From an uncultured Thiomicrospira sp. (GTDB taxonomy: Bacteria > Pseudomonadota > Gammaproteobacteria > CAKMZV01), in assembly GCA_965195345.1 (NCBI GenBank), contig OZ239628.1, positions 1,711,553 through 1,775,552 on the forward strand: a DNA stretch of 64,000 bases, read 5' to 3'. The notes beneath the pieces were generated by a model, which saw only the letters and a program-made list of their open reading frames with translations, did not search any database and was not told where the DNA came from. Both the position numbers and the translations under genes were made by a program. This document shows positions 44,825-47,886 of this stretch, one piece after another. The stretch's first letter is position 1. Every line of letters starts with the position of its first letter.

Positions 44825-45490
44825 ATGAATGAAAAAAAACAATCTTTGTTAGGTGGTGGAGAAGAATTAAGAGCAGTTTGTACTCCTGACTCAGGAGCTG
44901 CAGGAGTAAATGTCACCATAACAGCGACGCCTGCGTCTGAACCCTCAGGATTCCACAATCTAACCATTTTAGGCGGAGTAATAACATCATTAGAAACAGG
45001 GTTAGCCGAAAGATTAGATAATGTAGAAGCTGTGGAAGATGCAAAAATTTATACTACAACGCTCCCTAATGATCTTGATGAAGGACACTACGATATTGTC
45101 ATAGATTTAATATCACACGTCCCAGGTGCAGAAGAGTCACGCTTTACGATTAAGGCCAGTTATGAGGTTGAGGCGCATAAACCGGGTAAAAATCCTGAGG
45201 TAAGAACAATCATCCCATCGACAGTTTCGCAAGCTGAATTCAATACAAAAGTATTCTCTGCGCAGGGAACTAATTTTGATAAGTTAAATGTTCAGCGTGG
45301 TGCTCAAATAATTTCTGAAACTGGATTAACCAGATTAAGCATAACGCCTCAAAGTGATACAAGATGCCTTATACGTGTACTCAATCCATCTGGCACTCCT
45401 CCTTCGGAGGGTGTTTGGGCAATGTTCATGTACAGCAGCGGTGGAGAACCTATTTCATCAACATCTAGGATTCGAGTGGTGAAAGAATAG
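44825..45490 (+). CDS. paralog 1 of a 221-aa protein family of unknown function (no signal peptide, Ser-rich tail with terminal acidic residues)
   Basis: MNEKKQSLLGGGEE...; 75-80% identical to the three downstream copies; GGAG RBS 7 nt upstream. Confidence 0.8.
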   Translation: MNEKKQSLLGGGEELRAVCTPDSGAAGVNVTITATPASEPSGFHNLTILGGVITSLETGLAERLDNVEAVEDAKIYTTTLPNDLDEGHYDIVIDLISHVPGAEESRFTIKASYEVEAHKPGKNPEVRTIIPSTVSQAEFNTKVFSAQGTNFDKLNVQRGAQIISETGLTRLSITPQSDTRCLIRVLNPSGTPPSEGVWAMFMYSSGGEPISSTSRIRVVKE

Positions 45491-45566
45491 TAAGCGCACC
45501 AAATGTCATCATATAATCCAGTATTCTAAGAAACATTTCTCACTCATAGATTATATAAATCCAATT

Positions 45567-45651
45567 ATGGAAAAAGATTACCTAACTTGTAATCGCTATC
45601 TGCCGATGTTTTTTTAAACGGGAAAAATGAAACCTTTTAGAATTCAGCAAT
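45567..45651 (+). pseudogene. 5' remnant of a copy of the large (1014-aa) gene
   Basis: The sequence after the paralog-1 stop (...CCAATTATGGAAAAAGATTACCTAACTTGTAATCGCTAT) parallels the sequence after the paralog-4 stop through the large gene's ATG (...CCAATTATGAAAAAAGTTAGCG...ATAACTTGTCACCGCCTAT). An about 17-nt deletion and a stop after 16 codons follow. Confidence 0.45.
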
Positions 45652-45800
45652 ATCCAACGATCTATTGCTTGCGCTATGTCTCAAGGTATTCATAACGGTT
45701 TAATTAACAGTTTTTCTTTTTTGAAAGCGAGATAACGTTAGAATGCATATTACTATACTAATTTAAATATGAGTTCAACACCATCCGTGCGGAGTAAGCT
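45652..45800 (+). promoter_or_regulatory. conserved leader/promoter region of the paralog array (copy B)
   Basis: see 44681-44824. Confidence 0.35.
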
Positions 45801-46469
45801 ATGAATGAAAAAAAACAATCTTTGTTAGGTGGTGGAGAAGAAGTGAGAGCAGTTTGTACTCCTGATTCAGGAGCTGCAGGAGCACATGTCACCATAACAA
45901 CGACGCCTGCATCTGAACCTTCAGGATTCCATGATCTAACCATTTTAGGCGGAGTTGTAATATCACTAGAAACTGGGTTGGCTGAAAAATTAGATACTGT
46001 AGAGGCTATGGAGGATGCAAACATTTATACTGCAGTTCTCCCTAATGATCTTGATGAAGGACACTACGACATTATCATAGATTTAACATCACACCTCCCA
46101 GGTAAAGAATCGACACGCTTTACGATTAAAGCCAATTATGAAGTTGAGGGGAATGAGCGAGGTAAAAATCCTGAAATAAGAACAATCACCCCATCAACAA
46201 TTTCGCAAGCTGAATTCAATACAAAATTATTCACTGTGCAGGGAAAGAATTTTGATCAGTTAAATGTTCAGCGCGGTGCTCAAATACTTACTGAAGCTGG
46301 AGCAACCAGATTAAGCGTAACGCCTCAAAGTGATACGAGATGCCTTATACGTACAATCAATCAAGCTGGCACTCCTCCTTCGGCAGGTGTTTGGGCAGTG
46401 TTCATGTTCAGCAAAAGTGGAATACGTATTTCATCAGCCTCTAGGATTAGAGTGACGGAAGAAGAGTAA
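45801..46469 (+). CDS. paralog 2 (222 aa)
   Basis: differs from paralog 3 by one residue (A/V). Confidence 0.85.
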   Translation: MNEKKQSLLGGGEEVRAVCTPDSGAAGAHVTITTTPASEPSGFHDLTILGGVVISLETGLAEKLDTVEAMEDANIYTAVLPNDLDEGHYDIIIDLTSHLPGKESTRFTIKANYEVEGNERGKNPEIRTITPSTISQAEFNTKLFTVQGKNFDQLNVQRGAQILTEAGATRLSVTPQSDTRCLIRTINQAGTPPSAGVWAVFMFSKSGIRISSASRIRVTEEE

Positions 46470-46510
46470 GCGCACCATACGAGTTCAATACAATCAATAC
46501 GGAGTAAACT

Positions 46511-47179
46511 ATGAATGAAAAAAAACAATCTTTGTTAGGTGGTGGAGAAGAAGTGAGAGCAGTTTGTACTCCTGATTCAGGAGCTGCAGGAGCACATGTC
46601 ACCATAACAACGACGCCTGCATCTGAACCTTCAGGATTCCATGATCTAACCATTTTAGGCGGAGTTGTAATATCACTAGAAACTGGGTTGGCTGAAAAAT
46701 TAGATACTGTAGAGGCTATGGAGGATGCAAACATTTATACTGCAGTTCTCCCTAATGATCTTGATGAAGGACACTACGACATTATCATAGATTTAACATC
46801 ACACCTCCCAGGTAAAGAATCGACACGCTTTACGATTAAAGCCAATTATGAAGTTGAGGGGAATGAGCGAGGTAAAAATCCTGAAATAAGAACAATCACC
46901 CCATCAACAATTTCGCAAGCTGAATTCAATACAAAATTATTCACTGTGCAGGGAAAGAATTTTGATCAGTTAAATGTTCAGCGCGGTGCTCAAATACTTA
47001 CTGAAGCTGGAGTAACCAGATTAAGCGTAACGCCTCAAAGTGATACGAGATGCCTTATCCGTACAATCAATCAAGCTGGCACTCCTCCTTCGGCAGGTGT
47101 TTGGGCAGTGTTCATGTTCAGCAAAAGTGGAATACGTATTTCATCAGCCTCTAGGATTAGAGTGACGGAAGAAGAATAA
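46511..47179 (+). CDS. paralog 3 (222 aa)
   Basis: near-identical to paralog 2. Confidence 0.85.
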   Translation: MNEKKQSLLGGGEEVRAVCTPDSGAAGAHVTITTTPASEPSGFHDLTILGGVVISLETGLAEKLDTVEAMEDANIYTAVLPNDLDEGHYDIIIDLTSHLPGKESTRFTIKANYEVEGNERGKNPEIRTITPSTISQAEFNTKLFTVQGKNFDQLNVQRGAQILTEAGVTRLSVTPQSDTRCLIRTINQAGTPPSAGVWAVFMFSKSGIRISSASRIRVTEEE

Positions 47180-47220
47180 GCGCACCATACGAGTTCAATA
47201 CAATCAATACGGAGTAAACC

Positions 47221-47886
47221 ATGAATGAAAAAAAACAATCTTTGTTAGGTAGTGGAGAAGAAGTGAGAGCAGTTTGTACTCCTGACTCAGGAGCTGCAGG
47301 AGTAAATGTCACCATAACAGCGGCGCCTGCGTCTGAACCTCCAGGATTCCGCAATCTAACCATTTTAGGCGGAATAGTAACATCATTAGAAACAGGGATA
47401 GCCGAAAGATTAGAGAATGTAGAGGCTGTGGAAGATGGAAAAATTTATACTGCAACGATCCCTAATGATCTTGATGGAGGGCACTACGATATTATCATAG
47501 ATTTAATATCACACGTCCCAGGTGCAGAAGAGTCACGCTTTACGATTAAAGCCAGTTATGAGGTTGAGGGGCATGAACAAGGTGGAGATCCTGAGGTAAC
47601 GAGAATTACCCCATCGACAGTTTCGCGAGCTGAATTCAATACAAAAATGTTCACTGCGCGGGGAAGGAATTTTGATGAGATATATCATGAGCGTGGTGCC
47701 CAAATATTTACTGAAACTGGATTAACCAGATTGACTTTAACGCCTCAAAGTAATACGAGCTTCCTTATGCGTGCAACCAACCCAGCTAATACTCCTCCTT
47801 CGGTAGGTATTTGGGTAGTGCAAATGTACACCAGAGATGGAATGCGTATTTCATCAGCCTCTAAGCTTCAAGTGACGGAAGAATAA
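47221..47886 (+). CDS. paralog 4 (221 aa), most divergent C-terminal third
   Basis: shares N-terminal blocks with paralog 1 (VNVTITA, SHVPGAEESRFTIKASYEVE); lacks the second Cys. Confidence 0.8.
   Translation: MNEKKQSLLGSGEEVRAVCTPDSGAAGVNVTITAAPASEPPGFRNLTILGGIVTSLETGIAERLENVEAVEDGKIYTATIPNDLDGGHYDIIIDLISHVPGAEESRFTIKASYEVEGHEQGGDPEVTRITPSTVSRAEFNTKMFTARGRNFDEIYHERGAQIFTETGLTRLTLTPQSNTSFLMRATNPANTPPSVGIWVVQMYTRDGMRISSASKLQVTEE

Follow-up and report, generated by a model that had tools for sequence, protein, structure and literature searches.

Four neighbouring genes of one family lie head to tail in the genome of an uncultured Thiomicrospira sp., and their mutual similarity changes abruptly along their length. 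This raises the question of whether DNA has passed between the copies and, if so, whether such exchange is programmed. We addressed it in a window of 64,000 nucleotides (nt; contig OZ239628.1, positions 1,711,553 to 1,775,552), in which positions 44825-47886 hold four co-oriented paralogous open reading frames (ORFs) on the + strand, here called c1 to c4, of 221 or 222 amino acids (aa) each. The original prediction had read the segmental similarity as gene conversion between cassettes, of the kind known from antigenic variation or from diversifying toxin/immunity families. Its first half stood: a breakpoint, a switch of the closest pair that also shows in synonymous divergence (dS) and at the third positions of codons, and the junctions left by duplication all speak for recombination or gene conversion. 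The likeness to antigenic-variation or toxin/immunity systems did not. Recombination between the copies, by gene conversion or unequal crossing-over, explains the mosaic best, and we hold it to be probable.

The four genes form a mosaic

The four copies are 78-99.7% identical at the nucleotide level and follow one another with periods of 976, 710 and 710 nt. Protein identity is 77% for c1-c2, 73% for c1-c4, 69% for c2-c4 and 99.5% for c2-c3. Since c2 is distinguished from c3 by just two nucleotides, at gene nt 503 and 549, the array effectively holds three distinct sequences and offers one type of informative split. We therefore merged c2 and c3 into one sequence (c2/3) and assigned each variable site to the pair that it supported, which gave 48 sites joining c1 with c4, 50 joining c1 with c2/3 and 30 joining c2/3 with c4. 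In the same order, the classes count 33/11/10 on the 5' side of nt 358 and 15/39/20 on its 3' side: over nt 1-357, c1 and c4 group against c2/c3, and from nt 360 onwards c4 is the outlier and c1 lies nearer to c2/c3. A maximum chi-square test (max-chi2), each permutation of which repeated the breakpoint search, placed a single break between nt 357 and 360, that is at codon 119/120 (p=2.4e-4). Multinomial likelihood segmentation supported one breakpoint (p=7e-4), and a 3SEQ-like walk identified c1 (p=2.5e-4) and c4 (p=1.8e-3) as mosaics, with no significant result for c2. A second breakpoint near the 3' end was tried and found no support in the segmentation (p=0.35).

The change at the breakpoint is large. 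Between the 5' and the 3' part, divergence rises from 5.9% to 21.6% for c1-c4 and from 12.3% to 19.9% for c2-c4, and stays flat for c1-c2 (12.0% and 13.7%). The same switch was seen in dS, which goes from 0.062 to 0.207 for c1-c4 and from 0.232 to 0.127 for c1-c2, and at third codon positions, where sites joining c1 with c4 and c1 with c2 number 13 and 2 in the 5' part, 3 and 12 in the 3' part (Fisher p=7e-4). These data confirm that the mosaic is real and no chance pattern.

The blocks on which the original prediction was built, AAGVNVTITA and ISHVPGAEESRFTIKASYEVE in c1 and c4 against AAGAHVTITT and TSHLPGKESTRFTIKANYEVEGNERG in c2 and c3, were all recovered. Breakpoint testing, which it had proposed, gave a significant break by each of the three methods used here, and divergence was not uniform along the gene. 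Its description of c4 as the C-terminal outlier was borne out as well, the last 50 residues agreeing at 35 positions between c1 and c2, 24 between c1 and c4 and 28 between c2 and c4. One refinement applies: over the last ~17 codons the odd one out is c1, not c4, in a stretch that is statistically inseparable from the rest.

Taken copy by copy, c1 groups with c4 over nt ~66-357 (44890-45181), and its 3' part is nearer to c2/c3. At least three parts can be told apart in c4: nt 1-65 (47221-47285) are as in c2/c3, nt ~66-357 (47286-47577) are c1-like, and nt 360-663 (47580-47883) are the most divergent of the set. This 3' half of c4 is ~20% from c1, which matches the non-coding flank next to it, diverged by ~17%. 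Over the first ~65 nt of coding sequence (44825-44889, 45801-45865, 46511-46575 and 47221-47285; peptide MNEKKQSLLGGGEEVRAVCTPD), c1-c4 are almost identical, with 2-3 differences per pair, while the upstream flanks differ by 15-20%. This near-identity could reflect homogenisation, or constraint on the N-terminal peptide or the translation-initiation region.

Duplication junctions record recombination at the locus

The junctions between the copies are independent evidence of recombination at the locus. Upstream flank U is common to c1 and c2, and downstream flank D to c1 and c4 (Table 1). After c1, D runs on into the decayed first codons of the gene for a 1014-aa protein that follows c4. The sharing of U, D and this relic indicates that one duplication copied a 971-nt unit consisting of flank, gene, flank and large-gene start. 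The relic marks the end of the unit, and its position after c1 shows that the duplication that made c1 reached into the large gene. A second, near-perfect repeat of 710 nt (45790-46575 and 46500-47285) extends over the spacer into c4, of which it covers the first 65 nt. The spacers j1 and j2 are near-identical; in both, the beginning of D is joined to the last part of U. The c2/c3 pair is the most recent duplication.

A proposed history of the array

These observations are read most simply as a series of tandem duplications, after which c1 and c4 underwent at least one conversion-type exchange. In a first step, duplication of the 971-nt unit (U, gene, D and the first ~30-45 nt of the large gene) would have yielded c1. 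A duplication with a 710-nt period, its junction joining the start of D to the end of U, would then have produced the array that runs from c2 to c4, and a very recent unequal crossover inside the conserved first ~65 nt would have given the c2/c3 pair. Homologous recombination, presumably of the RecA type and acting on misaligned or paired copies, may have passed the tract of nt ~66-357 between c1 and c4, the tract ending at the predicted linker between two immunoglobulin (Ig)-like domains. The 3' halves of c1 and c2/c3 probably took part in another exchange, since c2 and c4, which share a duplication unit, are nowhere the closest pair. The outcome would be a mosaic typical of partial concerted evolution; its mechanism and direction we infer. 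Because the c1-c4 tract has diverged by ~6% since the exchange, the exchange appears old and is no high-frequency switch. As a whole, the locus is best explained as the lineage-specific tandem amplification of one small gene, encoding two Ig-like domains of the IPT/TIG type, directly upstream of a large gene.

Gene conversion between bacterial paralogs is well documented (PMC6053082, PMC12046097, PMC13061034), examples of such concerted evolution being the duplicated tuf genes and the repeat families of Mycobacterium tuberculosis. As in such cases, the paralogs studied here share a genome, one segment is far more similar between two copies than the remainder, the breakpoint is intragenic and ordinary homologous recombination between repeats would carry the exchange. 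Unlike the strongly conserved genes of the classic cases, the present copies are directly tandem, belong to an unannotated family and have a ratio of nonsynonymous to synonymous substitution rates (dN/dS) near 1.

Table 1. Features of the array and its flanks (positions in the 64,000-nt window)
Feature	Positions	Strand	Remarks
Upstream flank U, copy 1	44638..44824	+	Direct repeats D6/D8, 79-85% identical to 45609-45800; GGAG at 44815-44818, 6 nt 5' of the c1 ATG
c1	44825..45490	+	221 aa, two IPT/TIG-like domains
Downstream flank D, copy 1	45491..45566	+	Alignment A8, ~83% identical to the interval that separates c4 from the large gene
Relic of the 5' end of the 1014-aa gene	45567..45596	+	ATGGAAAAAGATTAC...CTAACTTGTAATCGC against ATGAAAAAAGTTAGC...ATAACTTGTCACCGC
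Upstream flank U, copy 2	45609..45800	+	79-85% identical to copy 1
c2	45801..46469	+	222 aa
Spacer j1	46470..46510	+	41 nt; joins the beginning of D to the last part of U; contains GGAG
c3	46511..47179	+	222 aa
Spacer j2	47180..47220	+	41 nt; near-identical to j1
c4	47221..47886	+	221 aa, mosaic
Downstream flank D, copy 2	47887..47960	+	74 nt between c4 and the large gene
Large partner gene	47961..51005	+	1014-aa uncharacterised protein; C-terminal ~480 aa conserved across phyla

Domain-specific selection as an alternative

The best-surviving alternative dispenses with recombination. It assumes a single tree, ((c1,c4),c2/3), on which the C-domain of c4, and less so that of c1, evolved several-fold faster under positive or relaxed selection and that of c2/3 slowed down. 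We consider this unlikely, and it accounts for several observations that weigh against exchange. In the AlphaFold model of the small protein, two beta-sandwich domains are formed by strands that run to residue 115 and start again from residue 125, and the breakpoint at codon 119/120 thus falls in the predicted linker (residues ~116-124). Domain-specific selection predicts the same position, which makes it a genuine rival. The dN/dS of each segment, also proposed in the original prediction, came to 1.26-1.40 in the C-domain, above the 0.44-0.99 of the N-domain, and to 0.71-1.20 for the whole gene; bootstrap intervals for the whole gene and the C-domain include 1. A dN/dS of ~1 is compatible with non-neutral lineage effects. 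At strictly synonymous codons (16 sites) the switch followed the same trend without reaching significance, with counts of 8/1 and 3/4 (p=0.11; max-chi2 p=0.23). In addition, with three distinct sequences and neither an outgroup nor an orthologous array, the direction and number of exchanges cannot be fixed, and the assembly is the sole source for the array of 3 x 710-nt repeats.

Three observations nevertheless argue against the single tree. It needs opposite rate shifts at one and the same boundary, c4-specific sites going from 11 to 39 and c2/3-specific sites from 33 to 15. The switch extends to dS and third codon positions, which selection at the protein level does not predict. Finally, the duplication junctions already show a recombining locus.

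Whatever the balance of exchange and selection, the genes have been kept intact. The differences between copies fall evenly on the codon positions, and yet at least 142 substitutions have produced no stop codon or frameshift, an outcome with a probability of ~0.003 under neutrality. Intact frames at a dN/dS of ~1 indicate that the proteins have been kept functional and are either weakly constrained or diversifying, two states that the data do not separate.

Assembly error and programmed variation as unlikely readings

That a collapsed or expanded repeat was mis-assembled, giving the c2/c3 pair, a chimeric c1/c4 pattern or both, is very unlikely. The 710-nt period does exceed short-read length and c2 and c3 are 2 nt apart, as such an error would have it. 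However, the differences of 6-22% between the copies are spatially coherent, the copies have unique flanks and junctions, including the decayed large-gene relic, and a chimeric assembly would not give flanks diverged by 17-20% that match the adjacent gene halves. Moreover, similar patchiness occurs in an independent array of another organism (L002). There, two adjacent paralogs (11206-12514 of that contig) are 92% identical at the protein level and identical over their last ~220 nt, and a single patch of 160 nt in the N-domain takes up 30 of the 37 differences between them at the nucleotide level, a 6-nt indel among these (p<=5e-5); within the patch, one paralog matches the next upstream paralog at most differing sites. 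This is a low-coverage long-read contig, and random sequencing errors would not cluster like the patch. Patchy exchange thus seems to be a general property of these arrays.

Programmed diversification, whether by one expressed copy with donors, as in antigenic variation, or in a polymorphic array like those of toxin/immunity genes, is highly improbable and largely refuted. It would fit the mosaic copies, a dN/dS of ~1 with frames kept, and a copy number that differs between lineages. Antigenic-variation cassette systems include pilE/pilS of Neisseria, vlsE of Borrelia and msp2 of Anaplasma, and the clustered paralogs of our locus resemble them in their segmental, non-reciprocal-looking similarity. 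Unlike those systems, the locus lacks silent or truncated donors and a single expression site, and nothing points to export of the products to the cell surface. None of the four copies is truncated, and each starts at an ATG with its own GGAG six bases 5' of it; they hence lack an arrangement of expression site and silent cassettes. The N-terminus (MNEKKQSLLGGGEEVRAVCTPDSG), read by eye and without a predictor, has no hydrophobic stretch, residues 1-8 are disordered in the model, and no signal peptide is visible. The metabolism of the host is also of a free-living type, and the exchange is old, not ongoing.

The proposed likeness to toxin/immunity genes fared no better. Searches of Pfam, NCBIfam, PADLOC, PHROGs and PDB sequences returned no match for the small proteins or the 1014-aa protein, and hence no toxin, immunity, defence or phage family. 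Inverted repeats at the locus are weak and at chance level, all copies are co-oriented, and a scan of the larger ORFs, from 150-180 aa upwards, brought up no invertase, recombinase or reverse transcriptase. On these grounds an invertase shufflon was rejected. A diversity-generating retroelement was rejected too, the scanned large ORFs containing no reverse transcriptase and the substitutions being spread over the whole gene without adenine-specific bias (AG 58, CT 25, AC 15, AT 12, CG 10, GT 8; 83 transitions and 45 transversions), an ordinary spectrum. Nor do the metabolic and housekeeping neighbours fit programmed diversification, and the paralogs of other lineages are old (26-57% identity), stable and not shuffled. 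Segmental similarity, in the original prediction the hallmark of intragenic recombination between cassettes, is what homologous recombination generally leaves behind in any tandemly duplicated gene, and is no hallmark of programmed variation. The process at this locus is real but commonplace: it is ordinary recombination between repeats, with no programmed variation system. As one more case of partial concerted evolution in a tandem duplicate it changes nothing in principle, and its mechanism is of low novelty; what is unusual is that the genes are weakly constrained and belong to an uncharacterised module.

A family of small two-domain proteins

We sought to place the small proteins among known families. 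With c1, c2 and c4 as queries, no Pfam family was found at E<=0.1, and the gathering score of PF01833 was not reached. In a search of 5.8 billion proteins the only close relatives were the window's own copies, and family-specific patterns run against GTDB genomes and JGI metagenome contigs returned no match and no orthologous array. A profile search of 1.84 billion cluster representatives did recover a handful of relatives of ~200-240 aa (E 6e-7 to 6e-4), which align to the small proteins over their full length. Adding these relatives raised the AlphaFold confidence score pLDDT (predicted local distance difference test) from 47.6, obtained with the four paralogs alone, to 82.7.

The modelled domains have a beta-sandwich fold of the IPT/TIG type, and Foldseek returned only generic tandem-Ig matches from the PDB. 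Distant relatives at two other loci (L001 and L004) match the Pfam TIG family PF01833 (E 7e-8 and 4.5e-7), and a full-length hhalign comparison of the family with small proteins that match Pfam TIG gave a probability of 96.3% (E 1.6e-9). Usual PF01833 proteins carry this E-set Ig-like fold within large surface proteins or enzymes; the present ones differ in being free-standing two-domain proteins of ~220 aa with no visible signal peptide. We thus define a previously unannotated family of ~200-240-aa proteins with two IPT/TIG domains.

Conserved pairing with a large partner protein

Wherever enough flanking DNA was available, the small genes adjoin a homolog of the large protein (~900-1040 aa). 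Scans of viral contigs and JGI metagenome contigs with the 1014-aa protein returned no match. The C-terminal domain of this protein, of ~480 aa, occurs in the source genome, metagenomic contigs, Mitsuaria, Streptomyces and a contig with cyanobacterial-type genes, and always near small TIG-domain genes.

The arrangement varies from locus to locus. At L008, one small gene is followed by the gene of a 981-aa protein whose identity to the window's protein is 47% for the C-terminal 500 residues and 26% for the N-terminal part, and at L002 at least six small genes (34-92% identical) precede a frameshifted ortholog of the large gene. The order is reversed at L010 (NCBI CP123872.1), where a 1038-aa protein comes before two small genes (47% identical), and at L011, where a 970-aa protein is followed by five at 26-36% identity, of which three face forward and two are reversed. 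A few kb upstream of this two-orientation array (L011, 1442-11204) are an insertion sequence (IS) element and a gene of the resolvase family. More distant operons with one or more small genes adjoining a homolog of the large gene were found at L001 and L004-L006. Apart from the TIG matches of L001 and L004, the proteins of these loci had no counterpart, by sequence, in curated families or among solved structures. The four copies of the window are much more alike than the arrays elsewhere, which fits recent local amplification with partial homogenisation.

The distant operon has the order TIG protein (178-185 aa), 221 aa, ~115-120 aa, ~914-922 aa and sometimes 460 aa, and is carried by Mitsuaria sp. 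WAJ17, Streptomyces coelicoflavus, Streptomyces sp. MS06 and a JGI metagenome contig. Its partner proteins matched nothing in the family libraries or, by sequence, in the PDB. As in the window, its first gene encodes a homologous two-TIG-domain protein (the 96.3% hhalign match), and the last large gene shares with the 1014-aa protein the C-terminal ~480-aa domain, at 26-28% identity. It differs in having only one small gene and, in addition, two genes that the window lacks, and the N-terminal half of its large protein is not detectably related to that of the 1014-aa protein. Fusion of the 221-aa operon protein as the origin of the latter half was considered and rejected (hhalign probability 0.1%).

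We infer that the small proteins serve the large one as binding partners or adaptors. More speculatively, they could form a repertoire of interchangeable binding or adaptor subunits, the arrays being kept for the sake of variety and recombination that ends at the linker shuffling combinations of N- and C-domains. On this reading variety is useful, and it would fit the copy number of one to at least six, the dN/dS of ~1 with frames kept and the old, diverged paralogs elsewhere; we regard this extension as unlikely. If true, the module would be a new two-component system, one part of which is a diversifying Ig-like protein, spread over free-living bacteria from several phyla. The more useful by-product of the analysis is the pairing itself, across phyla, of a multiplied small TIG gene with a ~900-1040-aa protein of no known domain. 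This uncharacterised module is worth a modest note: it offers the hypothesis of a two-component module with an Ig-like subunit of variable copy number, and a set of loci for functional work.

Genomic setting and minor features

The neighbouring genes encode adenylate kinase, pyrophosphatase, ZapE and SecA, and a set for the catabolism of dimethylsulfoniopropionate (DMSP), glycine betaine and one-carbon compounds that includes DmdA. The genome has 1.92 Mb and ~39% G+C, which together with these genes suggests a free-living marine-type heterotroph with a small genome. Genes for DMSP and methylated-amine catabolism are densely clustered at 35015-44186 and 51353-57763; they include DmdA (54187-55299), an acyl-CoA synthetase, an acyl-CoA dehydrogenase and a ProV-type ATP-binding cassette (ABC) ATPase, as well as GcvT-like and MTHFR-like genes and a dimethylglycine-oxidase-like fusion.

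Scans for promoters and terminators gave no excess over the shuffled expectation. Minus-strand ORFs of 68-95 aa lie over the 5' ends of c2, c3 and c4 (45758-46024, 46447-46734 and 47157-47363); they recur because the underlying DNA is repeated, and nothing marks them as genes. Further upstream, at 16714-19149, an 811-aa protein combines a SIR2-like domain with a following STAND-type nucleoside triphosphatase domain, an architecture typical of anti-phage defence genes.

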